A DNA stretch of 32,000 bases from Kiritimatiella glycovorans (GTDB lineage Bacteria; Verrucomicrobiota; Kiritimatiellia; Kiritimatiellales; Kiritimatiellaceae). Under the pieces are notes generated by a model. It saw nothing but the letters and a program-made list of their open reading frames with translations. It had not been told where the DNA came from and did not search any database. Below are positions 676 through 17,844 of the stretch, piece by piece. A program made the position numbers and the translations under genes. Location: positions 2,250,001 through 2,282,000 of the forward strand of contig NZ_CP010904.1 of assembly GCF_001017655.1 (NCBI RefSeq), in the 5' to 3' direction. Each line of letters begins with the position of its first letter. Position 1 is the stretch's first letter.

Positions 676-792
676 CTCATCCCTCCGCAACTCACCCGCT
701 GATCGTATCGATTCGTTTCCGGGATTCAACGGGAAAGGCTATCGTTTGCACTTTCTCGAAAACCGGAAACTGTGAGATTATGTCTTTTAAAC

Positions 793-3687
793 ATGAGGAC
801 ACTTCAACCCAGATGGTTCTGGATCTTTGCGGTCTTCACGTGCGCAGCACTTCTTGCGCGCGGCGAAGGGGCACTGCTGCTCGAATACAACTTCAGCGAC
901 GATCCCACGCCGTCGAAGATGGACGCGGAGTATATCGATCCCGATCTCGCAGCCACAGACATCACCGAATACGGCGACCCGGACGCCAGCGGGACCTCGC
1001 CGGAGCTGGCCAATTTCGCGGGCTATTCGCTGAACATCAAGCGCAACGCGCTCGATACGCATCCTATGAATTCCAGCGATTACCTGACGTTCACGGTCCG
1101 CACGGCCGACACGAACCGGCTGATAGATCCCGATCACGCCGAGCTGCGGTTCAACCAGTTCAGTGACGACTTCTCGTTCGTGATCTACGTCGATGCCGGC
1201 GAAGGTTTCCGGGAGGCGGCCACTCTGGGCGGAGCGAGCAACAGCTCTCTGCGGGACACGATCCGGGATCTCGACCTGGATGCGGTACCGGCCTCCACCT
1301 CGCTGGTCTTCCGGATCGAGTGCGCCCATGCCGCACCCGGTTCCGCCCTCAACACCACCCTTCAGTTCGCTCACGTCAAGCTGTACGGCGAACTCAGGAA
1401 TGCGGGGCAGCGGGATTCCGCGCGGCGTTTCCCCCGACTGACGAGACTCGCCGATGCGTCGGACCGGCTCGCCCTCCGGTGGCCCGGCGTGCAGGGATCC
1501 GTGTACAGGGTCGAGTCCACGACCCACCTCGTCGGAGGCACCTGGGGCCCCGAAGCCACGAACCTTGTCGGCGCGGGGGGATTCTGCGCGGTCACAAACA
1601 CAGCGGAGGGCAATCGACGTTTCTACCGCGTCCGAAAGACGGCAGCCCATGCCCCGGCTTATGCGTACCACGACATCCGCGACTACGGGGCGGTTCTCAA
1701 CGACGGGCTCGACGACTCGGACGCGGTTCAGGCCGCGATCGATGCCGCCGCCGCCAGCCGCTGGAACGGGACGGTCTATTTTCCGCCCGGTGTCACGACG
1801 ATCACCCGGCCGCTGGAGATGCGGATCTTCGTCAGCCTGCTCGGCGCCGGCACGCCCGGCGAAGCGGGAGGCTCTGTCCTGCGTGCCGCGCCGTCGGCCG
1901 AACTCACCTCCATGCTTTGGGGCCGCGACCCGGCGGTGCGGTTCCTGAGCATTGAGCATCTCACCTTCGACGGCGCCGGGCTGGAGATCCCGTGGATCAT
2001 CGACTTCGAGGACGCCATCAATCTGCGTATCGCCAATGTACGCATCGAGAACGTCCGCGGCGGCGGGATCCGCCAGCTCCGCTCGGACGGCGATCCCTGC
2101 TGGGTGAATTTCTATGAGAACATCGAGATCGAAATCCGGGATCATTCCGGGACCGGTTTTATTCACGGCGACAGCGACAGCCACCTGGCGGATCTCAGGA
2201 TCAGCGGCGCGGACGTCGGCATCCTCGAGATCGACGGCGGAGCGAATCTCTATCGCAACTGCGTGGTCTCGAACTGCATGACCGGAATGGTCCTTGCCGA
2301 CGGCGCCGACTGGCGACACGCAAATTCAGTCTGTGACAGCATTTTCCGGGACAACGTCGACTACGGCCTTGCGGTAACCAACGCCGCTCCGGCACACATC
2401 GTAATCAACGGGAACGTCTTCCGGGACAACGGCGAACGCGATATCTTTCTGCAGGACGCTTCCTGCCTGGCGATCCGGGGCAACGAGTTCCAATCGGCCC
2501 TGCCCCGCGACGCGATTTTCATGGAGCCGGGCACGGTGGACTCGGTCGCCCTCACCGGCAACCGCTTCGCACGCTCCTCGCAATCGCTCGAAGGCGCGAA
2601 AAGCGTCCGGACTGAGAACGTCTTCGGTCTCACCGGAAGTGAATTCGAAGGCATTGAGCGACTTGAAATCGGTCCGCCGCCGATCGTGCCGGGAGACGTC
2701 CCGTGCGATATCAACGTGAAGGACGCACCCTACCTCGCCGCCGGGAACAAGAGCGATGACGACACCGCCGCGCTGCAGGCGGCGCTGGACACCGCGCCGG
2801 ACGGGTCGATCGTCTATATCCCGCCCGGGCGCTACATGATCACCGAACCGCTTGAAATCAGGTCCTCCATCACCCTGCTCGGAGAGTACGCTGCCACATA
2901 CATCGTGGCCGACGCCCCCATGGACTGCATAATCCGCGGCGCCCCGGAGTCCGGCTTTCTGGAGGATGTCCTGATCAGCTCGCTGACCCTTTCGGGCAAC
3001 AATACCAACGTGGCCGCGGCCGTCCGGCTGGATGGACTGCGGCGCAGCACGCTGGATCGCGTCGACGTACGTTACCTGCCCGGACACGGCATCGTGGTTC
3101 CGGAGGGCTGCGACGGGAATCTGATCCGTTCCTGCAATATCCACAGCGCCGACACGCAGCTCGTCGTTGAGGGCGCGGGCACCACGATCGCCTCGGTCTA
3201 CGCCGGCGGCGGGATGTACTACGACGAGCTGGAAGGTTCCTTCTGCGGGGTGCGGCTCACGGGTGATGCGCGATTCACGCGGATCTACACCTCGCACATC
3301 GACCACACCCGCAGGCCGGGCAATATCGCGGCGCTGCACTTCACTCATCCGACCGCCTTCGACCAGAGCGCCATCATCCGCAACAGCTACTTCGACCTTC
3401 ACGACCGGGGACTGTTTTTCGATTACGACGAGCCTGCGACGGCCAACATCCTTTTTAAAGGCAACATATTCCGCGCGGTGAACGACTACAACTACCTGAA
3501 CGGGAACGCAGACGGCGTGTACCTGTACGGCAGCGTGTTTCTCGATAATCACTCCGACGCGTACATCCGGCACGAGTCCGGCGAGCTGGATTATATCGAA
3601 GTCATCGGGAACGTCTTCCGCGAACCGCGGTCGTACAGCCTCCCCGGCTCGCATTCAATCGACGCGGCAAACACGACGCAGGAATAG
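793..3687 (+). CDS. Secreted protein with an N-terminal domain of unknown type and two tandem right-handed beta-helix (pectate-lyase-superfamily-like) modules
   Basis: Track ORF 772..3687. I prefer the ATG at 793 (MRTLQPRWFWIFAVFTCAALLARGEG, signal-peptide-like). Two copies of the motif typical of the pectate_lyase_3 N-cap: YHDIRDYGAVLNDGLDDSDAVQAAIDAAAASRWNGTVYFPPGVTTITRPLEM and INVKDAPYLAAGNKSDDDTAALQAALDTAPDGSIVYIPPGRYMITEPLEI. Each is followed by repetitive beta-helix-like sequence. The first roughly 290 aa end in a ...RRFYRVRK module. No PEP-CTERM tail. Confidence 0.75.
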   Translation: MRTLQPRWFWIFAVFTCAALLARGEGALLLEYNFSDDPTPSKMDAEYIDPDLAATDITEYGDPDASGTSPELANFAGYSLNIKRNALDTHPMNSSDYLTFTVRTADTNRLIDPDHAELRFNQFSDDFSFVIYVDAGEGFREAATLGGASNSSLRDTIRDLDLDAVPASTSLVFRIECAHAAPGSALNTTLQFAHVKLYGELRNAGQRDSARRFPRLTRLADASDRLALRWPGVQGSVYRVESTTHLVGGTWGPEATNLVGAGGFCAVTNTAEGNRRFYRVRKTAAHAPAYAYHDIRDYGAVLNDGLDDSDAVQAAIDAAAASRWNGTVYFPPGVTTITRPLEMRIFVSLLGAGTPGEAGGSVLRAAPSAELTSMLWGRDPAVRFLSIEHLTFDGAGLEIPWIIDFEDAINLRIANVRIENVRGGGIRQLRSDGDPCWVNFYENIEIEIRDHSGTGFIHGDSDSHLADLRISGADVGILEIDGGANLYRNCVVSNCMTGMVLADGADWRHANSVCDSIFRDNVDYGLAVTNAAPAHIVINGNVFRDNGERDIFLQDASCLAIRGNEFQSALPRDAIFMEPGTVDSVALTGNRFARSSQSLEGAKSVRTENVFGLTGSEFEGIERLEIGPPPIVPGDVPCDINVKDAPYLAAGNKSDDDTAALQAALDTAPDGSIVYIPPGRYMITEPLEIRSSITLLGEYAATYIVADAPMDCIIRGAPESGFLEDVLISSLTLSGNNTNVAAAVRLDGLRRSTLDRVDVRYLPGHGIVVPEGCDGNLIRSCNIHSADTQLVVEGAGTTIASVYAGGGMYYDELEGSFCGVRLTGDARFTRIYTSHIDHTRRPGNIAALHFTHPTAFDQSAIIRNSYFDLHDRGLFFDYDEPATANILFKGNIFRAVNDYNYLNGNADGVYLYGSVFLDNHSDAYIRHESGELDYIEVIGNVFREPRSYSLPGSHSIDAANTTQE

Positions 3688-3752
3688 CTTTCCCGCCCCT
3701 GCCTTCACGTTTTTACCCGCCCCGGGCGTCCCCGGTACGGCGCGATCTCTCC

Positions 3753-3793
3753 GCCTTCGGCGCTCCGAGTACGCGTACGCGTACGAGTACGAA
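3753..3793. repeat. Intergenic repeat, copy 1 (GCCTTCGGCGCTCCGAGTACG followed by GTACGN hexamer periodicity)
   Basis: The exact 21-mer GCCTTCGGCGCTCCGAGTACG recurs at 16147-16167. The following GTACGCGTACGAGTACGAA tract parallels 16168-16196. It contains the GCGCC-TTC-GGCGC hairpin and the palindrome GTACGCGTAC. Confidence 0.6.
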
Positions 3794-3833
3794 AACGGCG
3801 GACGGTCTTCTGCTGTCCAGCAGAACCGCCGAC

Positions 3834-3891: not shown

Positions 3892-4854
3892 TCAACTCGC
3901 TCTGCGGCGCAGAATCGCGAGTCCGGCGCAGGACATGATCAGCAGGCCGATCGTGGCCGGTTCAGGGATGACGGTCGTTTCGTCGCTGATGCTGTCGTAA
4001 CTGTACGTCAAACCGCTTCCGGCATTGTCGACGAACAGACCGTCGTCGATCCATCCCTGCACGGCGTTGGTGGCATCGCCGCCGAACACGATCTTCGATC
4101 CCAGTTCATCGAAGAAAATGCCTTCCGTCGCGGTAGGTCCGGAATAGAAGTTCAGGGCATTGCTCGAAGTAAAATACAGCTCCCCGCCGAGCAGATTGAC
4201 CTTGGCCTCTCCGCTGACGACGCCGAAATCCCACTGGCCCAGCGATCCCGTGCCCGCCAGACTGTTGGAATAAACATTCACATGTACCGTCGCGTCAATT
4301 GCTTCAGGGGTCCCGAGATTGTCGGTGCCCATGAAAAACTTTCCGCGATACTCCCCTCCGTTCATCACATTGAGGGTGAATCCGTTGTTGGTATTGGCCG
4401 CCGATGCGGCATAGAACGGATAATTCCCCAGGCCGCCTCCCTGCCAAGACGATCCGGATCCCGTGATCGTCAGCGTAGCCGAAGAATTTTTCAGCCCGTT
4501 GAGCGTCACCGCCCGTGTCTGCCCTAAGGCGGCATTAACCACCGCGCCGTTGGTCACGATGATCGTGGTATCGCGCCAGTCCTGAACGCCGGCGGGCGCG
4601 AAATTCGACGAGATCAGCATGTCCGAGTTGCGGATATTGATCCCGCCCGGAGCCGCGTTGGTAGGGTCGGCGGCGATTACATACGCCCCGCCCTCAATCA
4701 CCGCGTTGCTCTGCAGCGGCAACGTGTCGTTCTCCCAGTTCAGCGGGTTGTTCCAGCGATTATCACCGGCGTCGTTGTCCCAGTGATTCTCCGCAGCCTG
4801 AACCGTCAGCGCAGCCGCCGCCAGAACAAGCATCATAATACTCAGTCTCTTCAT
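3892..4854 (-). CDS. PEP-CTERM-anchored secreted protein (320 aa)
   Basis: Signal peptide MKRLSIMMLVLAAAALTVQAAE; N-terminal W-rich module HWDNDAGDNRWNNPLNWEND. The C-terminus VIPEPATIGLLIMSCAGLAILRRRAS is the PEP motif plus a TM helix plus an Arg cluster, i.e. a PEP-CTERM sorting signal. Strong RBS GGAGGAGG upstream of the ATG. Confidence 0.88.
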   Translation of the reverse strand: MKRLSIMMLVLAAAALTVQAAENHWDNDAGDNRWNNPLNWENDTLPLQSNAVIEGGAYVIAADPTNAAPGGINIRNSDMLISSNFAPAGVQDWRDTTIIVTNGAVVNAALGQTRAVTLNGLKNSSATLTITGSGSSWQGGGLGNYPFYAASAANTNNGFTLNVMNGGEYRGKFFMGTDNLGTPEAIDATVHVNVYSNSLAGTGSLGQWDFGVVSGEAKVNLLGGELYFTSSNALNFYSGPTATEGIFFDELGSKIVFGGDATNAVQGWIDDGLFVDNAGSGLTYSYDSISDETTVIPEPATIGLLIMSCAGLAILRRRAS

Positions 4855-4997
4855 GCCTCCTCCTCTGTTTAATGCACTCGATTGCCTTGTAAGACTACAC
4901 CCACGCGGCCGTCAAGTTTTTTTGTTCAGGAATATCAAGGAACACGATGGCGGCAGCGCCGCGATCCCGTTCGCCGCAGATCCGCGCAGCGGAAAAA

Positions 4998-5049
4998 GTT
5001 CGTAGTAGGCCCGCAGGTCCGCGCAGCGGAGCGAGGGCCGTTATCTTAA
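4998..5049 (+). repeat. REP-like element, left arm of a palindromic pair split by IS copy 1
   Basis: GTTCGTAGTAGGCCCGCAGG (4998-5017) is the perfect reverse complement of 7058-7077. It contains the TCCGC-GCA-GCGGA mini-hairpin. Confidence 0.7.
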
Positions 5050-7029
5050 CCCGTCTTTCCCCGTTCGGCGGCCCAAACGTCTTTTTTCGGGGGTGTGACC
5101 TCCGTTTCGTCCTTTGTTTTCAAGGGGTCACGTTCCAAAAGGGGCTGTGGGGCAGACCTTGCCGGTTGACGACTTGATTTTCTGTGAAAAAATCGGGTTG
5201 TGTATTTGAAGTGCCACAGGCGACGCAAAGACGGCAAAGAGCACCGCTACTGGAGCATCGTTGAAAGTGTGCGGACCCGGCGCGGCGTCATGAAGCGTCC
5301 GCTGCTCTATCTGGGCGAACTCAACGACAGCCAGAAGGCTCAATGGTGCTCGGCACTCGACGTGCTGGATGAATCGACCGATTCGGTTCGACAGATAAGC
5401 CTGTTCCCGGAAGACCGCACGCCGCCGCCGGAGGTGTCCCATCCCGTTCGGATCCGGCTTTCCCGGCTGAGCTTGCATCATCCGCGTCAGTGGGGCGGAT
5501 GCTGGCTGGCCATGGAGTTGTGGAACGAGCTGGATCTGGACCGTTTCTGGAGCCCCCGTCTTCCCGCGAGCCGCAAGGGCACCGGCTGGCTCCACGTGCT
5601 CAAAACGCTGGTGACCTATCGTCTGCTCGATCCGGGCAGCGAGTGGCGGCTGCACCGCGACTGGTTTAAGGCCAGTGCCATGGCGGACCTGCTCGGCGAA
5701 GATGAGTCCATCGCGGCCAAAAACACGCTCTACCGCTGTCTCGATAAACTCGGTGAACACAAAGCCGATCTGTTTTCGTTTCTAAAGACACAGTGGCGCC
5801 TGTTGTTCGACGCTTCCTACGAGGTGCTGCTTTATGACCTGACCAGCACCTATTTTGAATGCGACGTGCCCGAACGCGAAGGGCTGCGCAAGTTCGGCTA
5901 CAGTCGGGACAAGCGATCCGACTGCGTGCAGGTGGTCATTGCGCTGATCGTCACGCCCGAGGGCTTTCCGGTCGCCTACGAGGTGATGCCCGGGAACACC
6001 TCGGATAAAACGACCCTGCCGGACTTCCTGCGCAGGATCGAGGCGCAGTACGGGAAGATGAACCGGCTCTGGATCATGGACCGGGGCATCCCGACCGAGG
6101 ACGCGCTCGAACAGATGCGAGCAGAAGGCGCGAGCTATCTGGTGGGCACGCCGCGCGGGCGGCTCAGCAAGCTCGAGGACCAGCTCTTCGGTCAACCGTG
6201 GAGGCAGGTGCAGGAGCAGATCGAGGTCAAGCTGGCCCGCGACGGGGAGGATCTTTACGTCCTCACCCGCAGCGGAAGTCGCTGCGATAAAGAGCGCTCC
6301 ATGCGACAGCGCAAACTCAAGAAGCTCTGGAAGCGCCTGCATCAACTGGGGGGCATGAAAAACCTCAAGCGCGACGAACTTTTGCTGAAACTGGGTGCCG
6401 CCAAACAGGAAGCGGGCAAAGCCTGGGGTCTGGTGGACCTCCGCCTTCCCCAACCCCGCGAGGCCGTTACGCCGGAGAGCTTTCACTTCCGGCTGAACCG
6501 CAAAAAACTGCGTAAAGCCCGTCGAGGTGAAGGCACCTACCTGTTGCGCACCAATCTGGCGGCCGAACAGCCCGAAGAGCTGTGGAAGCAATACATGGTC
6601 CTGAACGAGGTCGAGCAGGCCTTCAAGGAGCTGAAGAATGATCTGGATATCCGCCCGGTGTATCACCAGAAGGATGAGCGGATCGAAGCGCACATCTTCG
6701 TGTCATTTTTGAGCTACGCTCTGCAAGTCACGCTGAAACAGCGGGCCAAAGCCAGGGCCCCGGGCTTGACCCCCCGCGCCATCCTGGAAAAGTTCAAAGC
6801 CGTGCAGATGATCGATGTGCACCTGCCCACGACCGACGGGCGCACCCTGATCCTGCCGCGCTACACGCAACCGGAGAAAGACCTTCAGCTTCTGCTGCAC
6901 CAGCTCAACCTGACGCTTCCGGAACAACCACCCCCTCGGCTTGAAGAGCTGAAGAAAAAATGTGGGGCAGACCTTTGAACTGAAATCGAAGAAAAAAGGC
7001 GTTTTCGCCGCCGAACAGGGAAAGACGGG
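5050..7029 (+). mobile_element. IS1634-like (IS4 superfamily) insertion sequence, copy 1, 1980 bp
   Basis: Identical, in every stretch compared and in the 592-aa ORF translation, to 13702..15681. Terminal inverted repeats: CCCGTCTTTCCCCGTTCGGCGGCC (5050-5073) versus the reverse complement of 7006-7029, CCCGTCTTTCCCTGTTCGGCGGCG (22/24). Flanked by the direct repeat TTAA (5046-5049 and 7030-7033). Confidence 0.9.
5200..6978 (+). CDS. DDE transposase, IS1634-like / IS4 superfamily (592 aa)
   Basis: The N-terminus ...KDGKEHRYWSIVESVRTRRG...LLYLGEL and the core LLYDLTSTYFECD...GYSRDKRSDCVQVVIALIVTPEGFPVAYEVMPGNTSDKTT...WIMDRGI...EVEQAFKELKNDLDIRPVYHQKDERIEAHIFVSFLSY match the pattern I associate with IS1634-family DDE transposases. 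GTG start as given in the track. Confidence 0.88.
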   Translation: MYLKCHRRRKDGKEHRYWSIVESVRTRRGVMKRPLLYLGELNDSQKAQWCSALDVLDESTDSVRQISLFPEDRTPPPEVSHPVRIRLSRLSLHHPRQWGGCWLAMELWNELDLDRFWSPRLPASRKGTGWLHVLKTLVTYRLLDPGSEWRLHRDWFKASAMADLLGEDESIAAKNTLYRCLDKLGEHKADLFSFLKTQWRLLFDASYEVLLYDLTSTYFECDVPEREGLRKFGYSRDKRSDCVQVVIALIVTPEGFPVAYEVMPGNTSDKTTLPDFLRRIEAQYGKMNRLWIMDRGIPTEDALEQMRAEGASYLVGTPRGRLSKLEDQLFGQPWRQVQEQIEVKLARDGEDLYVLTRSGSRCDKERSMRQRKLKKLWKRLHQLGGMKNLKRDELLLKLGAAKQEAGKAWGLVDLRLPQPREAVTPESFHFRLNRKKLRKARRGEGTYLLRTNLAAEQPEELWKQYMVLNEVEQAFKELKNDLDIRPVYHQKDERIEAHIFVSFLSYALQVTLKQRAKARAPGLTPRAILEKFKAVQMIDVHLPTTDGRTLILPRYTQPEKDLQLLLHQLNLTLPEQPPPRLEELKKKCGADL

Positions 7030-7077
7030 TTAAACGCGCCTGGCCCTGCTTCGCAGGCCTGCGGGCCTACTACGAAC
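7030..7077 (-). repeat. REP-like element, right arm of the palindromic pair split by IS copy 1
   Basis: The reverse complement reads GTTCGTAGTAGGCCCGCAGGCCTGCGAAGCAGGGCCAGGCGCGTTTAA. It contains the GCCTGC-GAA-GCAGGC hairpin. Confidence 0.7.
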
Positions 7078-7084
7078 GATATCA

Positions 7085-7124
7085 CGCGCCTTGGCCCTTC
7101 GGGCCTTACGGCGCTACTACGAAC
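7085..7124 (-). repeat. REP-like element (second unit, tandem to 7030-7077)
   Basis: The reverse complement reads GTTCGTAGTAGCGCCGTAAGGCCCGAAGGGCCAAGGCGCG: the same core plus a GGCCC-GAA-GGGCC hairpin and a terminal GGCGCG. Confidence 0.65.
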
Positions 7125-7141
7125 TCTTCCTCACGCTATAC

Positions 7142-7174
7142 AAAAAAAGCGGCAGACCGTCGCCGGTCTGCCGC
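7142..7174 (-). terminator. Rho-independent terminator of PEP-CTERM gene A
   Basis: Minus strand GCGGCAGACCG-GCGA-CGGTCTGCCGC followed by T7. Located 30 nt downstream of the stop at 7204. Confidence 0.8.
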
Positions 7175-7203
7175 TTCCGTGCGATCCATCTTCGCGCGAA
7201 CCC

Positions 7204-8127
7204 TTACCGCAGACGCCGCCGCACGATCATCAGACCGCCCATCGCCGCGCCGAGCAGGCCGATGGTCGCCGGTTCGGGAATGACGGTCGTGAGGTCGCTG
7301 TCCGCATCGTAGCTGACCTGCAGATCGCCGACGGTCGACGAGAGCGCGCCGTCGCTGATCCAGCCGTTGACCTCGGTCACCCGGTTGCTATCAAGCGTGA
7401 TCTTCGAATCCGGCGCCGTGAAGATGATCCCGTCGTCGCCGTTGATGGTCAGGTTGGAATAATCGTACCCATCCAGCCCCGCCAGCCGGTTATTGAAATT
7501 CAGCGTACCGCCGTTGAGGTAGATCGCCGTTTCGTTATCGGTACCCGACTTCATGATTATGTCGAAATAAACATCGAATAATCCGCCGGTGTTCACGGAA
7601 ACCACATGGCTGTAGGTGCTGTAATCCGATCCCATTCCGCTCCCTTTGAACAAAAAGTCACCGTTTACATCGATATTCACAAACACCTGTTTTCCCCAGA
7701 AACTGTTGCCCGGGTTGATCCAGTCCCCGTTCACGGTGATATCCACGGTCTTACCCGCGGCACCGGCGGGTTCGAGCCGGTTTCCGCCTGCGTCGAACGT
7801 ACCGTCGACGATAAGCGAACCTTCATAGAATTTGGTTACGTTATTCTCGTTTATTGTGAACGTCGACCCGGACGTTATCCGCAGCGAGCTATCGTCCGTG
7901 AGTTTGAATCCGCCGACACTGAAATTGCCGTCGGCGGTGGTAATGCTGGTCTCGTTCGTCAACCGGTAGTTGTCATCGGTCGCAAACGAGGTGCCCGCCG
8001 GCGTCCAGTTTCCCGCGTCGCCGAAATTCGTTGACGTTCCGCCCTGCCACAGATAATCCGTCGCCTGCGCGGTCATCGCCAGACCCGCCACGCCGATCAG
8101 CACGGCCATCACTCTCATCGCCTTCAT
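7204..8127 (-). CDS. PEP-CTERM-anchored secreted protein, paralogue A (307 aa)
   Basis: Signal peptide MKAMRVMAVLIGVAGLAMTAQA; N-terminal module YLWQGGTSTNFGDAGNWTPAG; C-terminus VIPEPATIGLLGAAMGGLMIVRRRLR (PEP-CTERM). RBS GGAAGGAGGA. Confidence 0.9.
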   Translation of the reverse strand: MKAMRVMAVLIGVAGLAMTAQATDYLWQGGTSTNFGDAGNWTPAGTSFATDDNYRLTNETSITTADGNFSVGGFKLTDDSSLRITSGSTFTINENNVTKFYEGSLIVDGTFDAGGNRLEPAGAAGKTVDITVNGDWINPGNSFWGKQVFVNIDVNGDFLFKGSGMGSDYSTYSHVVSVNTGGLFDVYFDIIMKSGTDNETAIYLNGGTLNFNNRLAGLDGYDYSNLTINGDDGIIFTAPDSKITLDSNRVTEVNGWISDGALSSTVGDLQVSYDADSDLTTVIPEPATIGLLGAAMGGLMIVRRRLR

Positions 8128-8192
8128 CGTTCCTCCTTCCGTTTAATTCGCACCCTCGACTTTATGCAAACTGCCATCGTTTGCACTCGATA

Positions 8193-8221
8193 TACTAACA
8201 TCTATATTTGAGGGGGTGCAA
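8193..8221 (-). promoter_or_regulatory. Candidate sigma70-type promoter of PEP-CTERM gene A
   Basis: Minus strand AAAAAAAAC-TTGCAC-(17-18 nt)-TTAGTAT. The -35 box plus upstream A-tract is conserved at 15755-15768 and, as TTGAC, at 4911-4923 upstream of the 320-aa PEP-CTERM gene. The -10 match is weak. Confidence 0.4.
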
Positions 8222-8239
8222 GTTTTTTTTCGGGAATAT

Positions 8240-8269
8240 TTGATCGAGAGTTGCAGACCGACGTACAAT
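8240..8269 (+). promoter_or_regulatory. Candidate sigma70-type promoter reading toward the large secreted protein gene
   Basis: TTGATC-N18-TACAAT. The paralogous position 15778-15807 reads GTGATC-N18-TAAAAT. Confidence 0.45.
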
Positions 8270-8433
8270 TCCTGCGGGGAACGGGATTTCACCAGAGAGC
8301 GGTTGAACTCAGCGGCGGCACTCCGTCCGCTGAAGGGACTGGTTCGAACCTGTTTTTTTCTCGCCAGGCCGCCAGGGTCGCCAGGGATTGTCTTCATTCG
8401 GGGAACACGATTTCTTTCCGCGCAGCGGAAAAA

Positions 8434-8485
8434 GCTCGTAGTAGGCCCGCAGGTCCGCGCAGCGGGGCCAGGGCCGTTATCTCAA
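8434..8485 (+). repeat. REP-like element (single arm) in the leader of the large ORF
   Basis: GCTCGTAGTAGGCCCGCAGGTCCGCGCAGCGGGGCCAGGGCCGTTATCTCAA is near-identical to 4998-5049. It is translated spuriously in track ORFs 8251.. and 8216.. Confidence 0.7.
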
Positions 8486-8541
8486 CCCGTACCGAATGCG
8501 AGCGATTGCATTTAACATTGTCCGCGTGCTGCGCAGCCCGC

Positions 8542-11500
8542 ATGATGACGGGAATGAGGGGTCAGAAAACATGGGTCGATGCGGGCCGAATGGGGCTTCT
8601 CGCGGGGGCGCTGATCGCCCTGCTCTTTTCGACGCCTCCGGCCCGCGCGACTGAGACCAACACCTGGCTGGGCGGCGACGGAACATGGAGCGATCCGGCG
8701 CCGTGGAGCCTGGGTGTCCCGTCGGCCACCCAGCATGTGGAAATCGCCGCGGGCGTAACCGTCACCTGCGCACAGCCCGCCAACCACGCAGGCTCCGTCC
8801 GCCTCCGCGGCGGTGCGTCCCTGCACATCGACTCGGACACACTCGACCTCTCCCCCGGCACCGGCGTCCGGAACCTCTTCGTCGGCGAGGGAACTTCAAC
8901 CCTTTACATCGCCCACGGAGCTACGCTGGACAGCCAGGGTCTGGACCTCGATCCGGGCGTCGATCTCACGGCACGCATCGAGGGGCTGTGGGACGCATTC
9001 GGCGGAAGTCCGATCATCAGCACCGGAACCCTGCGCATGATCATCGGCGCCGACGGCATCTTCCGTTCACGCAACTACACCTCCCGCTGGGGCGATTTCC
9101 CCCACTCCTCCCACCTTCACACGGAAACCGATATCTTCGGTCAATTCATCTCCCGGATCGGTGCCATCGGTCATCCCGATGCCGATCATCAGTCGATCAC
9201 CTTCAATCTCTACCGCGGCGGTACGATGGATACCTGGGACCGCGGATTGACCCTCCGCGAATCTTCAACCAGCGAGATCACGCTCAACCTCTACGGCGGA
9301 CAGCTCCGGGTGCGGGGCGACACGGGAGTCGAGTTCAACGCCGAAGACGGCACGCCCGCCGGGGGGATCCTCTTTCACTCCACCGACGCGGAGATGCAGA
9401 TCGACGGCGGCGATTTCACTGCCGCGGTCACGGACGCGATAACCGCCGGCGCGCTGCGCGCGGGCCCCGCACTCGACGATTACAAGCCGGAGGCCTCTTT
9501 TGACGGAACCCGCACCCGTGTCTACGCCGTGCGCGATTCCGACGTCGACGGCGACGGTCTTCCCGACCGCATGGAAACGGGCACGGGAACCTACCGCGGT
9601 CCTTCAGATCCGGGCACCGATGCCGACCGCGCCGACTCCGACGGCGACGGGGTCGATGACTACGCCGAGATCCACCACTTCCTGACCGACCCCGCTGATC
9701 CCGACGACCATCCGGCGGATACGGGGGCCGCCTCGCCGGACCGGCGCGTCCTCGAGATCCCCCTCGAGGCATACGTCGTCGCTTCGACCGAATCGACGGA
9801 ATCGCTCAAATCCGATTCCGCGGCACAGGACTGGCCGGAGGCGGGCGAACTTTATGCACGCGAGACCTTTAATTTCCGCAAGGCGGACTACGACACCTTT
9901 CATGAAATGGCCGCCGACTACCCCGATTTCCCCTTTTCGCAGGAAGAGGCCTGTTACGGCGACAAGCGCGCGCGCCTCTTCCTCCGCTTCGACCTCTCCG
10001 CGCTTTCCACCGGCGACCTCGCGCACATCGAATCGGCCTGCCTCCGCCTGCACCAGCGGGGTCGGCGCCACGACCTCACCCGCTACCACGTCGAAGACAT
10101 CGAGATCGCCGCGGCCGGGATACGGATCGCGCGCGTCGAGGCCCCGTGGGCCGACAGTCCCGGCCAATACCCCGTCTTCACCCAGGAGCGGACGACGTGG
10201 CAGACCATCGGCGGGTATTATGAGTTCGGCTGGGGACTCGATTCCGCGGGATTCTACTCGGGCGATACAGGCGCACACTGGGTCATGGACGACCGGATCG
10301 AGATGACCGGATGGGTTGCGGACTGGATCCGCCGTCCGGCAGAGAATCACGGGCTCGTCGTCGGGGTAGAGGACGGCCGCTACGCCGGCGTCTCGTGTTC
10401 CATCGCGGACGACCCGGCCACCCCGGAAAATGAAGCGCCCGCGCTGATCGTGACCTTTGAGACGCAGGAGGACGCCGGATCGCCGGAGCTGGCTCTCCGC
10501 CGCACGCGTGATCCGTCCACCGGCGAGCGCCGGACCACGGTATCGCTGTGCACTGAGTGCCGCCTGAACACGCATGAAGCGATCCTCTACTACTCGAACC
10601 ATCTTCGCCGCTGGACGCCGATCGACTACGACAGTCACAGCGCGTGCTTTCCCTGGTGGACCTCCGATCGCGTCCCGGACTTCAGGGCCTCCACGGAAGA
10701 GCTTCCCGGAGGCAGAAGACATACCTCGTGGCGGCTTCCGGGTTCGATGAACCCGGGATTCTTCCGGGTTCAATCGAGACCGATCGCTGAGTCGGCCGAT
10801 GGCGAGGTAACCGGCGCATTGCCGGTCGGGGCTCTGCACAGCCCCTACGCCTCCGAACGGGTGGTCGACCTCCAGATCAAACGCGGCTCGCATATCCGCG
10901 AACTTCCGAAAGGCATCCCGGATGCCGAAGTGGATCTTCCCTACCTGCACCGCCGCGCGGATCACGGACCTGAGTTTCTTTTCAAGGACCACCTCTACTT
11001 CGTGCGTTCTCTCGGCGGATACGGGGGGCAGTACGAGCTTAATAGCGGAGAGCTGCATACCAACGACATCGCCTACCTGCAGGACGGCGCATTTTACTTT
11101 GATCCCGAAGAGGTGAAAGAGCGGTTCGACATCTGGTTCCCGGTCCGCGACGAGTTGGGCGTCGACCAGCCCGACGTACAGGACTTCCTGCGCTACACGA
11201 TCGTGATCGATACCATCCCGTGGGATTTCTCGTCGCTGCCGACCCCGAACGCATCGTTTGGCAACCGCGGTGCGCCCGAGGACATGGACGCCTGGTACCT
11301 ATTCGTCCACTGGCTGTGCCAGACCCTGCTTGACCGTTACGAGCCGGAATTCGTGCGCGGACTGCGGTTCAGGATCGGCAGTGAAGCGCGCTACACGCTG
11401 TCGGAAGGCGACGAAGCCGCAGGACGCAACCGGGAGCAGAGTTACCTGCGCTACTACGACACCACGGCCGCCGCGATCCGCGATGTGCTTCCCGAAGCCC

Positions 11501-12669
11501 GGATCGGACCCTTCAACCAGATGGCCGCGGCCGAGCTGTTTACGCGCTATCCGACCGCAGGGGCGCCCGACGAGCTGGGCACGATCTGGAGCGTGGCCGA
11601 ACACTGCGCGGGGCGGGGACGTTTTCCGCAGAACTTCGCCTGGCTCGAAGGTCGGGCGGGCGCCGAAGCGCGCCGGGCGCCGTACGATTTTGCCGGGGGA
11701 TCGTGGTACAAGGAGAATTCCTCGGTCGCCGAACTGGAACGCGACTTCCGGTCACTCCGAAACAAGCTGATGGATATCGACGCCGACCGTTACCGCGATA
11801 TCACGCTGGAGATGATGGAGAGCGACTTCCGCTCGCTCTACCGCGAGGCGGACAGCTGGGAGACCGGGGCGTACGGAGCGGCGTACCGATTCCGTTCCGC
11901 CCTCCGCGGCCTGCGTCACGGCATCTGCGGCGAGTGGGGCGCGCCGGAGTTCGAGGAGATCGGTGCCGTGAACGAATACGGCGACACCCCGTCTCATACC
12001 GTGCTCGGGAGCGCCCTCACCGGACACGGCTTTGTGCGCATCGTGATGACGCACATGGAGGACGGATATGGCTACATCCTTCCCGTAGAACGCACCGGTA
12101 CGGCGGGCGGGGTCGAGGCCCTGATGGCGTACTTCCCCGCGGAGGACCGGCTGCTGATCGGGGTCGCCGCCTCCGAGTTCGATGAAAAGCCGCCCGCGCC
12201 CGATACCGGCTGGGCGATTCCCGAAGAGCACCTGCGCCGGGAATCCGTCTCCATACGGATTCCCGCTCTCCTGATCGAAGACCCCGCGGGCACCGTATCG
12301 ATCCGGTCCACGGCGCTGACCTCGAACACCGCGGTCTACCGCTATCTGCGTCATAAGCTCGCCTCCTGGGGACTGCTGAGCGATTCGATGACGGAGACGC
12401 CGCAGGCCGTCGGGGGCTGGTACCAGATGATGGGCGGCAAGGGACGCGCCACCCGCCGCGAGGATGAGGAAGTCAATGCGCGGATCAACGAGGCCTATGA
12501 TCACGTAGACGCCACGCTGATCGAAACCGTCCACACTATGAACCGTGATCTGCTGATGCTGGAGGACGACACGAACAGCGCGTTCATCCGCGACGGCGCC
12601 AGTTACCGGCTGAACGTCACCGTCGAATTCCCCGGCATGCATGTGTTCGAGATCGACTGGGCGCGTTAA
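8542..12669 (+). CDS. Large multidomain secreted protein (about 1376 aa). Order of parts: W-rich N-terminal beta-strand module, thrombospondin-type-3-like Asp-rich Ca-binding repeats, DNRLRE-like domain, FFRV-terminated module, then a roughly 620-aa C-terminal region that may be a glycoside-hydrolase-like TIM barrel
   Basis: Track ORF 8251..12669; its first 97 codons cross the promoter and the REP, so I start at ATG 8542 (alternatives 8554, 8590). Signal peptide ...RMGLLAGALIALLFSTPPARA/TE; TNTWLGGDGTWSDPAPWSLGVP; DSDVDGDGLPDRMETGTG...DSDGDGVDDYAEIHHFLTDPADPDD (about 9535-9720); KRARLFLRFDLSAL...ACLRLH...MTGWVADWIRRPAENHGLVVGVEDG (about 9900-10380). The C-terminal segments ...LRFRIGSEARY... 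and ...DITLEMMESDF... are vaguely clan-A-like, which is a weak inference. No PEP-CTERM tail. Confidence 0.8.
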   Translation: MMTGMRGQKTWVDAGRMGLLAGALIALLFSTPPARATETNTWLGGDGTWSDPAPWSLGVPSATQHVEIAAGVTVTCAQPANHAGSVRLRGGASLHIDSDTLDLSPGTGVRNLFVGEGTSTLYIAHGATLDSQGLDLDPGVDLTARIEGLWDAFGGSPIISTGTLRMIIGADGIFRSRNYTSRWGDFPHSSHLHTETDIFGQFISRIGAIGHPDADHQSITFNLYRGGTMDTWDRGLTLRESSTSEITLNLYGGQLRVRGDTGVEFNAEDGTPAGGILFHSTDAEMQIDGGDFTAAVTDAITAGALRAGPALDDYKPEASFDGTRTRVYAVRDSDVDGDGLPDRMETGTGTYRGPSDPGTDADRADSDGDGVDDYAEIHHFLTDPADPDDHPADTGAASPDRRVLEIPLEAYVVASTESTESLKSDSAAQDWPEAGELYARETFNFRKADYDTFHEMAADYPDFPFSQEEACYGDKRARLFLRFDLSALSTGDLAHIESACLRLHQRGRRHDLTRYHVEDIEIAAAGIRIARVEAPWADSPGQYPVFTQERTTWQTIGGYYEFGWGLDSAGFYSGDTGAHWVMDDRIEMTGWVADWIRRPAENHGLVVGVEDGRYAGVSCSIADDPATPENEAPALIVTFETQEDAGSPELALRRTRDPSTGERRTTVSLCTECRLNTHEAILYYSNHLRRWTPIDYDSHSACFPWWTSDRVPDFRASTEELPGGRRHTSWRLPGSMNPGFFRVQSRPIAESADGEVTGALPVGALHSPYASERVVDLQIKRGSHIRELPKGIPDAEVDLPYLHRRADHGPEFLFKDHLYFVRSLGGYGGQYELNSGELHTNDIAYLQDGAFYFDPEEVKERFDIWFPVRDELGVDQPDVQDFLRYTIVIDTIPWDFSSLPTPNASFGNRGAPEDMDAWYLFVHWLCQTLLDRYEPEFVRGLRFRIGSEARYTLSEGDEAAGRNREQSYLRYYDTTAAAIRDVLPEARIGPFNQMAAAELFTRYPTAGAPDELGTIWSVAEHCAGRGRFPQNFAWLEGRAGAEARRAPYDFAGGSWYKENSSVAELERDFRSLRNKLMDIDADRYRDITLEMMESDFRSLYREADSWETGAYGAAYRFRSALRGLRHGICGEWGAPEFEEIGAVNEYGDTPSHTVLGSALTGHGFVRIVMTHMEDGYGYILPVERTGTAGGVEALMAYFPAEDRLLIGVAASEFDEKPPAPDTGWAIPEEHLRRESVSIRIPALLIEDPAGTVSIRSTALTSNTAVYRYLRHKLASWGLLSDSMTETPQAVGGWYQMMGGKGRATRREDEEVNARINEAYDHVDATLIETVHTMNRDLLMLEDDTNSAFIRDGASYRLNVTVEFPGMHVFEIDWAR

Positions 12670-12677
12670 GAAAGAAG

Positions 12678-12691
12678 GTTCGTAGTAGCGC
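12678..12691 (+). repeat. REP-like core only (GTTCGTAGTAGCGC) at the boundary of duplication copy B
   Basis: Same core as 4998, 8434 and, inverted, 7067-7077 and 7114-7124. It abuts the first duplicated base, 12689. Confidence 0.55.
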
Positions 12692-12696
12692 TATAC

Positions 12697-12729
12697 AAAA
12701 AAAGCGGCAGACCGTCGCCGGTCTGCCGC
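12697..12729 (-). terminator. Rho-independent terminator of PEP-CTERM gene B; may also stop the convergent large ORF
   Basis: Identical to 7142-7174. It lies 28 nt after the stop of the plus-strand large ORF, but the plus-strand side lacks a T-run. Confidence 0.75.
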
Positions 12730-12758
12730 TTCCGTGCGATCCATCTTCGCGCGAACCC

Positions 12759-13682
12759 TTACCGCAGACGCCGCCGCACGATCATCAGACCGCCCATCGC
12801 CGCGCCGAGCAGGCCGATGGTCGCCGGTTCGGGAATGACGGTCGTGAGGTCGCTGTCCGCATCGTAGCTGACCTGCAGATCGCCGACGGTCGACGAGAGC
12901 GCGCCGTCGCTGATCCAGCCGTTGACCTCGGTCACCCGGTTGCTATCAAGCGTGATCTTCGAATCCGGCGCCGTGAAGATGATCCCGTCGTCGCCGTTGA
13001 TGGTCAGGTTGGAATAATCGTACCCATCCAGCCCCGCCAGCCGGTTATTGAAATTCAGCGTACCGCCGTTGAGGTAGATCGCCGTTTCGTTATCGGTACC
13101 CGACTTCATGATTATGTCGAAATAAACATCGAATAATCCGCCGGTGTTCACGGAAACCACATGGCTGTAGGTGCTGTAATCCGATCCCATTCCGCTCCCT
13201 TTGAACAAAAAGTCACCGTTTACATCGATATTCACAAACACCTGTTTTCCCCAGAAACTGTTGCCCGGGTTGATCCAGTCCCCGTTCACGGTGATATCCA
13301 CGGTCTTACCCGCGGCACCGATGGGTTCGAGCCGGTTTCCGCCTGCGTCGAACGTACCGTCGACGATAAGCGAACCTTCATAGAATTTGGTTACGTTATT
13401 CTCGTTTATTGTGAACGTCGACCCGGACGTTATCCGCAGCGAGCTATCGTCCGTGAGTTCGAATCCGCCGACACTGAAATTGCCGTCGGCGGTGGTAATA
13501 CTGGTCTGGTTCGTCAACCGATAATTATCATCGGTGGCGAACGAGGTGCCCGCCGGTGTCCAGTTTCCCGCGTCGCCGAAATTCGTCGACGTTCCGCCCT
13601 GCCACAGATAATTCGTCGCCTGCGCGGTCATCGCCAGACCCGCCACGCCGATCAGCACGGCCATCACTCTCATCGCCTTCAT
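12759..13682 (-). CDS. PEP-CTERM-anchored secreted protein, paralogue B (307 aa)
   Basis: Differs from paralogue A only at D24N, E59Q, K75E and A120I. Same signal peptide and the same PEP-CTERM tail. RBS GAAGGAGAGGA is retained, but IS copy 2 begins 19 nt upstream of the ATG. Confidence 0.88.
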   Translation of the reverse strand: MKAMRVMAVLIGVAGLAMTAQATNYLWQGGTSTNFGDAGNWTPAGTSFATDDNYRLTNQTSITTADGNFSVGGFELTDDSSLRITSGSTFTINENNVTKFYEGSLIVDGTFDAGGNRLEPIGAAGKTVDITVNGDWINPGNSFWGKQVFVNIDVNGDFLFKGSGMGSDYSTYSHVVSVNTGGLFDVYFDIIMKSGTDNETAIYLNGGTLNFNNRLAGLDGYDYSNLTINGDDGIIFTAPDSKITLDSNRVTEVNGWISDGALSSTVGDLQVSYDADSDLTTVIPEPATIGLLGAAMGGLMIVRRRLR

Positions 13683-13701
13683 CGTCCTCTCCTTCGGTTA
13701 G

Positions 13702-15681
13702 CCCGTCTTTCCCCGTTCGGCGGCCCAAACGTCTTTTTTCGGGGGTGTGACCTCCGTTTCGTCCTTTGTTTTCAAGGGGTCACGTTCCAAAAGGGGCTGT
13801 GGGGCAGACCTTGCCGGTTGACGACTTGATTTTCTGTGAAAAAATCGGGTTGTGTATTTGAAGTGCCACAGGCGACGCAAAGACGGCAAAGAGCACCGCT
13901 ACTGGAGCATCGTTGAAAGTGTGCGGACCCGGCGCGGCGTCATGAAGCGTCCGCTGCTCTATCTGGGCGAACTCAACGACAGCCAGAAGGCTCAATGGTG
14001 CTCGGCACTCGACGTGCTGGATGAATCGACCGATTCGGTTCGACAGATAAGCCTGTTCCCGGAAGACCGCACGCCGCCGCCGGAGGTGTCCCATCCCGTT
14101 CGGATCCGGCTTTCCCGGCTGAGCTTGCATCATCCGCGTCAGTGGGGCGGATGCTGGCTGGCCATGGAGTTGTGGAACGAGCTGGATCTGGACCGTTTCT
14201 GGAGCCCCCGTCTTCCCGCGAGCCGCAAGGGCACCGGCTGGCTCCACGTGCTCAAAACGCTGGTGACCTATCGTCTGCTCGATCCGGGCAGCGAGTGGCG
14301 GCTGCACCGCGACTGGTTTAAGGCCAGTGCCATGGCGGACCTGCTCGGCGAAGATGAGTCCATCGCGGCCAAAAACACGCTCTACCGCTGTCTCGATAAA
14401 CTCGGTGAACACAAAGCCGATCTGTTTTCGTTTCTAAAGACACAGTGGCGCCTGTTGTTCGACGCTTCCTACGAGGTGCTGCTTTATGACCTGACCAGCA
14501 CCTATTTTGAATGCGACGTGCCCGAACGCGAAGGGCTGCGCAAGTTCGGCTACAGTCGGGACAAGCGATCCGACTGCGTGCAGGTGGTCATTGCGCTGAT
14601 CGTCACGCCCGAGGGCTTTCCGGTCGCCTACGAGGTGATGCCCGGGAACACCTCGGATAAAACGACCCTGCCGGACTTCCTGCGCAGGATCGAGGCGCAG
14701 TACGGGAAGATGAACCGGCTCTGGATCATGGACCGGGGCATCCCGACCGAGGACGCGCTCGAACAGATGCGAGCAGAAGGCGCGAGCTATCTGGTGGGCA
14801 CGCCGCGCGGGCGGCTCAGCAAGCTCGAGGACCAGCTCTTCGGTCAACCGTGGAGGCAGGTGCAGGAGCAGATCGAGGTCAAGCTGGCCCGCGACGGGGA
14901 GGATCTTTACGTCCTCACCCGCAGCGGAAGTCGCTGCGATAAAGAGCGCTCCATGCGACAGCGCAAACTCAAGAAGCTCTGGAAGCGCCTGCATCAACTG
15001 GGGGGCATGAAAAACCTCAAGCGCGACGAACTTTTGCTGAAACTGGGTGCCGCCAAACAGGAAGCGGGCAAAGCCTGGGGTCTGGTGGACCTCCGCCTTC
15101 CCCAACCCCGCGAGGCCGTTACGCCGGAGAGCTTTCACTTCCGGCTGAACCGCAAAAAACTGCGTAAAGCCCGTCGAGGTGAAGGCACCTACCTGTTGCG
15201 CACCAATCTGGCGGCCGAACAGCCCGAAGAGCTGTGGAAGCAATACATGGTCCTGAACGAGGTCGAGCAGGCCTTCAAGGAGCTGAAGAATGATCTGGAT
15301 ATCCGCCCGGTGTATCACCAGAAGGATGAGCGGATCGAAGCGCACATCTTCGTGTCATTTTTGAGCTACGCTCTGCAAGTCACGCTGAAACAGCGGGCCA
15401 AAGCCAGGGCCCCGGGCTTGACCCCCCGCGCCATCCTGGAAAAGTTCAAAGCCGTGCAGATGATCGATGTGCACCTGCCCACGACCGACGGGCGCACCCT
15501 GATCCTGCCGCGCTACACGCAACCGGAGAAAGACCTTCAGCTTCTGCTGCACCAGCTCAACCTGACGCTTCCGGAACAACCACCCCCTCGGCTTGAAGAG
15601 CTGAAGAAAAAATGTGGGGCAGACCTTTGAACTGAAATCGAAGAAAAAAGGCGTTTTCGCCGCCGAACAGGGAAAGACGGG
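13702..15681 (+). mobile_element. IS1634-like insertion sequence, copy 2, 1980 bp
   Basis: Same sequence and same IRs as copy 1 (offset 8652). Flanked by the direct repeat TTAG (13698-13701 and 15682-15685). Confidence 0.9.
13852..15630 (+). CDS. DDE transposase, IS1634-like (592 aa), identical to 5200..6978
   Basis: Identical translation in the ORF track. Confidence 0.88.
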   Translation: MYLKCHRRRKDGKEHRYWSIVESVRTRRGVMKRPLLYLGELNDSQKAQWCSALDVLDESTDSVRQISLFPEDRTPPPEVSHPVRIRLSRLSLHHPRQWGGCWLAMELWNELDLDRFWSPRLPASRKGTGWLHVLKTLVTYRLLDPGSEWRLHRDWFKASAMADLLGEDESIAAKNTLYRCLDKLGEHKADLFSFLKTQWRLLFDASYEVLLYDLTSTYFECDVPEREGLRKFGYSRDKRSDCVQVVIALIVTPEGFPVAYEVMPGNTSDKTTLPDFLRRIEAQYGKMNRLWIMDRGIPTEDALEQMRAEGASYLVGTPRGRLSKLEDQLFGQPWRQVQEQIEVKLARDGEDLYVLTRSGSRCDKERSMRQRKLKKLWKRLHQLGGMKNLKRDELLLKLGAAKQEAGKAWGLVDLRLPQPREAVTPESFHFRLNRKKLRKARRGEGTYLLRTNLAAEQPEELWKQYMVLNEVEQAFKELKNDLDIRPVYHQKDERIEAHIFVSFLSYALQVTLKQRAKARAPGLTPRAILEKFKAVQMIDVHLPTTDGRTLILPRYTQPEKDLQLLLHQLNLTLPEQPPPRLEELKKKCGADL

Positions 15682-15960
15682 TTAGGCTCTTTACGGCTCT
15701 TCATGCAAACCGCCATCGTTTGCATATGATGCACTTACATCTATATTTGACCGGGTGCAAGTTTTTTTCGGGAATATGTGATCGAGACTTACAGGCCGAC
15801 GTAAAATCCCTGTGGGGATCGGGATTTCACCAGAGAGCGGTTGAACCCAGCGGCGGCACTCCATCCGCTGAAGGGATTGGTCGAACCTGTTTTTCTCTCG
15901 CCAAGCCGCCAAGGCCGCCAGGGAATGTCTTCCTTCGAGGGAGCACGATGTCTTTGCCTG
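15682..15960. promoter_or_regulatory. Divergent promoter / leader cassette (long form, copy B'), separated from PEP-CTERM gene B by IS copy 2
   Basis: Homologous to 8128-8420. Contents: TGCAAAC-N7-GTTTGCA (15704-15724); GTGCAA plus T7 (15755-15768); GTGATC-N18-TAAAAT (15778-15807); CAGCGG-N11-CCGCTG (15848-15870); CGCCAAG/CGCCAAG/CGCCAGG (15899-15922); GAGGGAGCACGATG (RBS plus ATG at 15948). Confidence 0.6.
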
Positions 15961-16127
15961 TGCTCTTCTCATTCATCTTTGCGGTTCCGGCGCCTTGGCG
16001 AGAGTCACTTCTTGTGTTTTCGACGACGGATTACATCGATGACGCGGATGGGATCTCGAAATCCGAATCGAAGTCGAAATCGAGGTTCAGAGAGAACATA
16101 ATTCGTGCTCTTACTCGAGTTCCCTGA
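15948..16127 (+). CDS. Hypothetical small protein (59 aa), speculative
   Basis: ATG at 15948 is preceded by GAGGGAG 4 nt upstream and by the TAAAAT promoter candidate. Product: MSLPVLFSFIFAVPAPWRESLLVFSTTDYIDDADGISKSESKSKSRFRENIIRALTRVP (hydrophobic N-terminus, Ser/Lys-rich tail). The RBS-ATG box is conserved at 4937-4949 but is ATT at 8410. The 3' half overlaps low-complexity repeats, so this may be a gene remnant. Confidence 0.3.
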   Translation: MSLPVLFSFIFAVPAPWRESLLVFSTTDYIDDADGISKSESKSKSRFRENIIRALTRVP

Positions 16128-17833: not shown

Positions 17834-17844
17834 CGAGCCACCTC

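Follow-up and report, generated by a model that had tools for sequence, protein, structure and literature searches.

We analyzed a 32,000-nt window of the Kiritimatiella glycovorans genome (GCF_001017655.1, NZ_CP010904.1, positions 2,250,001–2,282,000), in which a divergent intergenic region (8128–8541; all coordinates are those of the window unless stated) separates a PEP-CTERM protein gene on the minus strand (7204–8127) from a large gene on the plus strand (8542–12669). An earlier note on this DNA had described a conserved bidirectional promoter/leader cassette in this region, shared by PEP-CTERM loci and carrying structured elements not explained by coding. The region is probably an ordinary, lineage-specific divergent promoter together with the 5' untranslated region (5'-UTR) of a small family of paralogous PEP-CTERM surface-protein genes in K. 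glycovorans. This family was multiplied by duplication and then remodelled by insertion sequence (IS) insertion, by deletions or insertions, and by conversion. In a relative, only a core at 8165–8211 is kept as well; it consists of the palindrome (A)TGCAAAC-N7-GTTTGCA(T) and, beside it, an AT-rich block. These sequence comparisons lend modest support to a promoter core whose palindrome is a candidate operator. The protein family is tiny, with seven homologues found in 5.8 billion proteins.

Duplication of the locus and IS1634-family insertions

A self-BLAST of the window matched 5046–7032 to 13698–15684 (99.95% identity), 7134–8143 to 12689–13699 (98.4%), and 8160–8417 to 15699–15955 (87.6%). 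Two IS1634-family elements were found on the plus strand, copy A at 5050–7029, with a TTAA target duplication at 5046–5049 and 7030–7033, and copy B at 13702–15681, with a TTAG target duplication at 13698–13701 and 15682–15685. Their transposase matched the IS1634 family model NF033559 with 310 bits against a cut-off of 100. The elements resemble IS1634-family insertion sequences in having a 592-aa DDE transposase, inverted repeats (about 40 nt, 42–46 nt, at the ends of both copies) and short target duplications, and in occurring as two near-identical copies.

When copy B and one TTAG are removed, position 13701 joins 15686, and the reconstructed sequence is collinear with 8128–8417 and of equal length. 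It follows that 15686–15955, hereafter long form 2, is the upstream region of the second 307-aa PEP-CTERM gene (12759–13682, minus strand; 99% identical to copy 1), just as 8128–8417, or long form 1, lies upstream of the 307-aa copy 1. The two long forms are thus the two copies of one duplication, in which 7134–8417 corresponds to 12689–13701 plus 15686–15955. Copy 1 of this 1.28-kb segmental duplication (7134–8417, minus strand) comprises a terminator, the PEP-CTERM gene and its upstream region. The gene-proximal part of copy 2 (12689–13701, minus strand) holds the gene, 15 nt of upstream sequence including the Shine-Dalgarno sequence, and then the left TTAG, and its distal part is long form 2, which includes a palindrome (15704–15724) and a promoter-like site (15719–15747).

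The earlier note had placed 15682–15960 immediately before a PEP-CTERM ATG. This stretch in fact lies on the far side of the IS, and its first four nucleotides (15682–15685) are the target duplication. Copy B was inserted 15–18 nt before the copy-2 start codon, with the Shine-Dalgarno sequence on one side and the palindrome on the other, and the copy-2 upstream region is now ~2 kb away from its gene, which ends at 13682. Copy B separates this gene from its promoter region and may silence copy 2. The two IS copies have the same orientation and bracket PEP-CTERM copy 1, the large gene and the copy-2 coding sequence. A composite transposon built by them was ruled out, each copy having its own matching target duplication. 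The 4.1-kb large gene lies between the direct repeats of 1.28 kb, and recombination between these repeats could delete or amplify it.

The divergence between the two copies follows a gradient, with no difference in 7134–7765, 13 differences (3.6%) in 7766–8127, and 12–14% divergence in the upstream region. The PEP-CTERM proteins are mosaic, P0001 and P0002 being 41% identical overall and nearly identical over their last ~55 residues. As far as can be read from the sequences, the gradient and the mosaic proteins suggest gene conversion or cassette-like exchange among the paralogues. Both in the paralogues of the genome and in a metagenomic relative (contigs L002 and L004, described below), the signal-peptide region, the C-terminal ends and the terminator were well conserved and the central domain had diverged.

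A short form of the upstream region (4855–4980) precedes an older paralogue on the minus strand (3892–4854; 320 aa), which is 44% identical, over its C-terminal third only. The short form retains the Shine-Dalgarno region, TGCACTCGAT, CAAGTTTTTTT..GGAATAT and GGAACACGAT, and has neither the palindrome nor the long-form module (8240–8416). Its part outside the repetitive extragenic palindrome (REP)-like sequence shows patches of collinearity with long form 1 (z = 6.7 relative to shuffles). The proposal of three paralogous upstream regions thus holds for the short form, whereas the two long forms represent a single duplication and not an independent recurrence. Likewise, the short form had been explained by an internal deletion of ~170 nt, and a ~165-nt gap over the module was indeed seen, but a further 35-nt gap removes most of the palindrome. 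The full set of motifs is not shared by PEP-CTERM loci at large: it is present in the two copies of one duplication, and is lacking in the third paralogue, in a Pontiella homologue and in two further homologues (L005 and L006).

A REP-like element adjoins the short form, and another adjoins long form 1. The half element at 8417–8490 (plus strand; TCCGCGCAGCGG...GTAGTAGGCCCGCAGG...) lies outside the gene duplication and is 95% identical to 4981–5054. Members of this repeat family (GTTCGTAGTAGGCCCGCAGG...) were seen at 4998–5042, 7033–7077, 7078–7125 and 8434–8478. A long hairpin of this REP-like type, with arms at 4998–5042 and 7033–7077, carries IS copy A in its loop; before the insertion these arms formed a ~95-nt hairpin whose TTAA loop was the insertion site. 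A general lesson from this locus is that repeated "conserved cassettes" within one window can all stem from one duplication event, interrupted by an IS and homogenised by conversion, and that the agreement of motifs among such duplicated copies is uninformative about their function.

The palindrome and the AT-rich block in a metagenomic relative

The perfect palindrome TGCAAAC-TGCCATC-GTTTGCA is located at 8165–8185, 38–58 nt upstream of the ATG at 8127. As the earlier note had reported, it recurs in long form 2 with a lone difference in the spacer (chance 0.06). Twelve nucleotides away from it lies the 14-nt AT-rich block ACATCTATATTTGA (8198–8211), which contains −10-like sequences on both strands (TATATT on the plus strand and TATAGA on the minus strand). 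GC content falls to 41% at 8150–8249, the AT-richest part of the intergenic stretch.

The comparison outside the genome relies on L002, an 890-nt ENA contig of a metagenomic relative that contains the 5' part of the homologous gene and 149 nt upstream; a second contig, L004, contains the 3' part of the relative's gene. L002 keeps the palindrome, as ATGCAAAC-N7-GTTTGCAT (positions 81–101 of the contig), with the same spacer as in the window, together with the block ACATCTATATTTGA at an unchanged distance; the flanks diverge. The gene strand of L002 reads ...CTCAAATATAGATGT-aaatgcattata-TGCAAACgatggcgGTTTGCA..., the sequence further upstream is unrelated to the window, and 11 nt are inserted further downstream. 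The 62-nt upstream stretch is 93.5% identical to the window, as are the last 310 nt of the gene, compared with 80–84% for the adjacent 5' coding sequence. The block is identical in both long forms and L002, and its 12-nt distance from the palindrome is constant even though the linker varies. Between the two long forms, these two islands together carry one mismatch in 35 nt, against a difference of ~40–50% in the linker and the 5'-UTR flank, a contrast that was drawn post hoc and depends on the alignment.

A consensus scan called a plus-strand sigma-70-like promoter, TTTGCA-17-TATATT, at 8180–8208, directed away from the PEP-CTERM gene. It also called this promoter at the corresponding position of long form 2 (15719–15747) and of L002 (from 86 to 58), and the pattern occurs nowhere else in the window. 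Its −35 is the right arm of the palindrome and its −10 lies within the block; the length of the spacer is fixed and its sequence varies. The site is thus a predicted promoter whose hexamers fall within the 16–18 nt range of separation and whose position is kept among homologous sequences. By contrast, the plus-strand promoter favoured previously, TTGATC-18-TACAAT, passed the scan in long form 1 only. The idea of a bidirectional promoter keeps its divergent-gene setting and its promoter-like sites, but it is TTTGCA-17-TATATT rather than the TTGATC site that is conserved.

For the PEP-CTERM gene itself, an A-tract followed by TTGCAC and then by GGAATAT (8219–8239, minus strand) is present in all three window copies and may provide an UP element and a −35. 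The sequence CAAGTTTTTTT was found in all three upstream regions (chance 0.18), and L002 has a loosely similar sequence (AAAAGTTTACG) shifted by 3 nt.

The palindrome is a two-fold symmetric site kept against diverging flanks, as judged post hoc from three sequences, and the palindrome and the adjacent block are the only parts kept in the relative. The earlier suggestion that the palindrome could be an operator is thus plausible. The ~50-bp core would contain the transcription start region of one or both divergent genes, and the palindrome would be the binding site of a dimeric regulator overlapping the plus-strand −35. Lying where the PEP-CTERM transcript begins or just within it, such a site could allow one protein to control both genes, the plus-strand promoter presumably reading toward the gene of the large secreted, glycan-enzyme-like protein. 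The remaining ~230 nt would be drifting spacer or leader DNA, whose apparent conservation would reflect the age of the duplication.

Recurrence of these motifs was counted within the window. The palindrome matched the two duplicated sites and one site with two mismatches in the gene of an extracytoplasmic function (ECF) sigma factor. This degenerate palindrome (TGCGAACTCAGCCAGTTTGCC, 24677–24697) lies at the ECF sigma/anti-sigma junction, and ~0.06 such matches are expected by chance in the window. One arm of the palindrome had been reported to recur at 741–751, upstream of a beta-helix protein gene, hinting at a shared regulator. This link did not hold: the 10-mer at 741–750 is at chance level (26 of 100 shuffles gave at least three matches) and no matching −10 was found after it.

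Searches beyond the window were made in several collections. Nothing similar to the palindrome was found in the Pontiella, L005 and L006 homologues, L005 and L006 being too distant and the Pontiella gene lying inside an operon without a comparable upstream region. A scan of JGI metagenomes with the palindrome-plus-block pattern returned one chance match, inside a repeat-protein gene, and viral, plasmid and phage collections gave no match to the region. A degenerate DNA pattern for TTVIPEPATIGLL was absent from the contig collection scanned, evidently one without the K. glycovorans genome, and a protein-pattern scan of genome contigs yielded 100 chance matches, none of which was confirmed.

The long-form module and alternative readings

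The long-form-specific module (8240–8416, plus strand) is present in the two paralogous copies only. All the motifs listed in the earlier note were found where it had placed them: besides the palindrome and CAAGTTTTTTT, these are the back-to-back promoter sequence TTGATC-N18-TACAAT (8240–8269, plus strand; GTGATC-N18-TAAAAT in copy 2), the hairpin CAGCGG-N11-CCGCTG (8309–8333 and 15848–15870), a T-run (8353–8359) that is broken in copy 2, three CGCCAGG heptamers (8361–8386), and the GGAACACGAT box (8402–8411), which had been described as a "ribosome-binding site (RBS)-start box". The heptamers reach a Tandem Repeats Finder score of 32–38, below the usual threshold and like other trivial arrays nearby. 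We also observed an 18/22 direct repeat, TTC(C/A)T(G/T)CGGGGAAC..GATTTC, at 8269–8290 and 8393–8414, 124 nt apart, which brackets most of the module. Its second unit is the "RBS-start box". Copy 2 has a weaker version of the pair, and only one unit is present in the short form.

From the palindrome outward (8164–8417), the two long copies show 31 differences in 255 aligned positions (12%), evenly spread, and their longest perfect run, of 27 nt, is compatible with random placement (P = 0.62). Three 1-nt indels (8223, 8343 and 8401) break all reading frames, and the substitutions show no codon periodicity. The open reading frames (ORFs) of the region had no Pfam match, and an 84-aa minus-strand ORF (8143–8397) had no homologue among 1.84 billion representative proteins. 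On these grounds a hidden small gene was ruled out, in agreement with the earlier view that the region is non-coding. A 17-codon upstream ORF that starts in the palindrome loop and, in both window copies, terminates on the main ATG was also rejected, its frame being lost in L002 and no Shine-Dalgarno sequence being present. With mismatches evenly spread, no periodicity, folds like those of shuffled sequences and no Rfam match (see below), the motifs of the module are supported by common descent only; on the sequences compared, the agreement of the TTGATC promoter, hairpin, T-run, heptamers and "RBS-start box" appears to be a matter of paralogy alone.

Two readings assign a function at the RNA level. 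It is distinctly improbable that the module serves the large gene as a cis-regulatory leader on the plus strand, or is a small RNA, extending from 8216 or 8276 to near the T-run. The plus strand does have promoter-like sites, and a leader of ~270–330 nt before the large gene would give room for regulation. Folded alone, short hairpins are stable (−15.4 kcal/mol and z = −4.4 for 8309–8333, which the T-run follows), and one G-C to A-U double change falls in an alternative small hairpin (8325/8339). However, folding of the module and of the whole region equalled that of shuffles (z = −0.44, +0.56 and −0.20, the first two for the whole module), which does not bear out the structured elements or leader RNA of the earlier note. 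A terminator caller found none on the plus strand at 8300–8360 and 15840–15900, the T-run beginning 21 nt past the hairpin. The Rfam/Infernal scan that the note had proposed gave no match at the gathering score in the window and, at E ≤ 1 in the three regions, only a meaningless 13.7-bit fragment of a small nucleolar RNA inside coding sequence. RNAalifold, run on two sequences, missed the hairpin and proposed a different structure with three double changes in 56 pairs, which carry no weight at n = 2. In addition, the short form lacks the module, and in copy 2 there is no gene after it. L002 ends ~50 nt past the core, in a stretch not recognisably like the window, and the module lies beyond its reach.

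Rather unlikely, but worth a tentative place, is a role of the palindrome itself as RNA, in which a 7–9-bp stem capped by a conserved GAUGGCR loop, close to the 5' end of the PEP-CTERM message, would stabilise this mRNA or bind a post-transcriptional regulator. The gene-strand hairpin is stable (−9.8 and −9.9 kcal/mol; z = −3.5 and −4.0), its loop is as conserved as its arms in three sequences, and 38–58 nt before the ATG is a typical 5'-UTR position. Yet any palindrome folds equally well on both strands, perfect 7-bp hairpins with short loops number 87 in the window, and the short-form paralogue manages without the palindrome. The stems are invariant across the two or three sequences compared, and covariation thus neither supports nor rejects this reading. 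The coincidence of the right arm with exactly the −35 of the conserved promoter-like site fits a role at the DNA level.

Two other readings need no specific function. In the first, nothing is functional beyond a generic promoter, the similarity reflects recent ancestry and gene conversion, and the palindrome is a neutral passenger. The clear conversion tracts and mosaicism of the family, the single close relative (93.5%), the frequency of hairpins of this size, and the lack of the palindrome in the third paralogue and the distant homologues are all consistent with this. We nevertheless consider it unlikely: the islands carry one mismatch in 35 nt within ~100 nt whose intervening and neighbouring DNA differs by 40–50% in the window copies, the L002 island is better conserved than the adjacent coding sequence, and the 17-nt spacing of the hexamers is kept while the spacer sequence changes. 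In the second reading, which is very improbable, the cassette or the module is a small mobile element or a dispersed repeat of the REP or miniature inverted-repeat transposable element (MITE) type. Here the gene duplication accounts for every window copy, the ends of the module show neither terminal inverted repeats nor a target duplication, and plasmid, phage, viral and JGI metagenome scans gave nothing beyond the chance coding match already mentioned, although REP-like elements directly adjoin the region (8417–8490 and 4981–5045), two IS copies occupy the same regions, and the 18/22 direct repeat brackets most of the module.

Several points also weigh against the divergent promoter and operator core that we favour. 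Its cross-species support comes from one 890-nt contig of a fairly close relative (93.5% identity in the conserved parts), and in a mosaic family the 62 nt kept there may represent a recombination tract and not a selected site. We found no convincing, positionally conserved −35/−10 pair for the PEP-CTERM gene, and the sigma-70 consensus used in the scan may not be that of Kiritimatiellota. The 7-7-7 geometry of the palindrome is unusual, and the palindrome does not recur at other promoters of the 32-kb window, where no regulon is visible. The copy count is limited to this window, and further copies may exist elsewhere in the genome. Finally, the 18/22 direct repeat that brackets the module is not accounted for by this reading.

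Gene surroundings and comparison with known systems

The ORF map and Pfam/NCBIfam matches identified a beta-helix protein gene (772–3687, plus strand), the older PEP-CTERM paralogue, the 592-aa transposase gene of IS copy A (5200–6978, plus strand) and PEP-CTERM copy 1. The transposase gene of copy B is at 13852–15630 (plus strand). The large gene encodes a secreted protein of 1375 aa with weak glycosidase-like matches; its N-terminus had no orthologue in the database and only weak repeat matches. Further along, rsfS (16226–16597, minus strand) is followed by polysaccharide-export genes (17249–21750) and an ECF sigma/anti-sigma pair. A second type of repeat, rich in GTACG(A/C)G, was seen at 3752–3797 and 16094–16201; the latter is a hairpin with 24-bp arms located 3' of rsfS, and a comparable sequence is found after the beta-helix gene.

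Downstream of the relative's PEP-CTERM homologue, L004 1136–1753 encodes an N-terminal sequence that looks alpha-L-rhamnosidase-like by eye. The Pontiella homologue is surrounded by sulfatase genes, and a LacI-family gene is close by. The PEP-CTERM family may be linked to glycan degradation and not solely to exopolysaccharide export.

PEP-CTERM genes mostly form single-gene operons preceded by extensive non-coding DNA, and cis-regulatory sequence is common within a lineage (Haft et al. 2006, PMC1569441). In Proteobacteria, these regions share a PrsR motif 1 and a sigma-54 motif 2 (PrsK/PrsR/PrsT); this motif is confined to that group, and for many PEP-CTERM upstream regions no regulatory motif is known (Haft et al. 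2006, PMC1569441). The present locus resembles the PrsR system in its lone PEP-CTERM genes, its >200 nt of non-coding upstream DNA without a hidden ORF, its upstream sequence common to paralogues of one genome, suggestive of joint control, and its nearby polysaccharide-export genes. It differs in having a 7-7-7 palindrome with a sigma-70-like −35/−10 in a host belonging to Kiritimatiellota, and in that the sharing stems from a recent duplication and not from a genome-wide regulon.

The sigma-54 motif of the PrsR system is positioned 23–221 nt upstream of the PEP-CTERM start codon. No −24 GG/−12 GC site (TGGCAC-N5-TTGCW, at most two mismatches) was found in 4855–5045, 8128–8541 and 15686–15955, and the whole window contained 13 matches against 10.3 expected. 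For the 17-nt PrsR motif 1, which stands ~63 nt upstream of motif 2, only the terminal TTTACA was tested, and it was absent from both strands of the three upstream regions. A sigma-54 promoter was ruled out by the motif scan of these regions. ECF-type and Bacteroidetes-type promoter readings of the AT-rich block were judged by eye only and found no support.

The core also shares two-fold symmetry, overlap with the −35, 17-nt spacing and an AT-rich centre with divergent sigma-70 regions in which a palindromic operator overlaps the −35. It differs in its half-site centres, which are 14 bp apart, a longer arm spacing than in most operators of helix-turn-helix dimers. The arms TGCAAAC/GTTTGCA presumably read like LacI/PurR half-sites (..GCAAAC / GTTTGC..), which we take as a lead only. 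LacI/PurR operators are contiguous 14–16-bp palindromes with a central CG, whereas the arms here are 7 nt apart. The neighbouring genes look glycan-related and the Pontiella homologue is near a LacI-family gene, in line with such a regulator; no LacI-family gene was seen in the window.

A literature search, not aimed at transcriptome data as such, gave no paper joining the name K. glycovorans with "PEP-CTERM", and nothing relevant for Kiritimatiellota. A more far-reaching proposal, which we think unlikely to prove correct as a whole, is that the palindrome and promoter core are the operator of an undescribed Kiritimatiellota regulator that jointly switches a variable, mosaic PEP-CTERM surface protein and the divergently encoded, giant glycan-enzyme-like secreted protein, as a non-proteobacterial, sigma-54-independent counterpart of PrsR. 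In that case, the module, which contains paired GGGGAAC..GATTTC repeats, might add a second level of control, through looping sites or as a leader RNA. Should the operator reading be right, the core would offer a first handle on the control of PEP-CTERM surface proteins outside the Proteobacteria.

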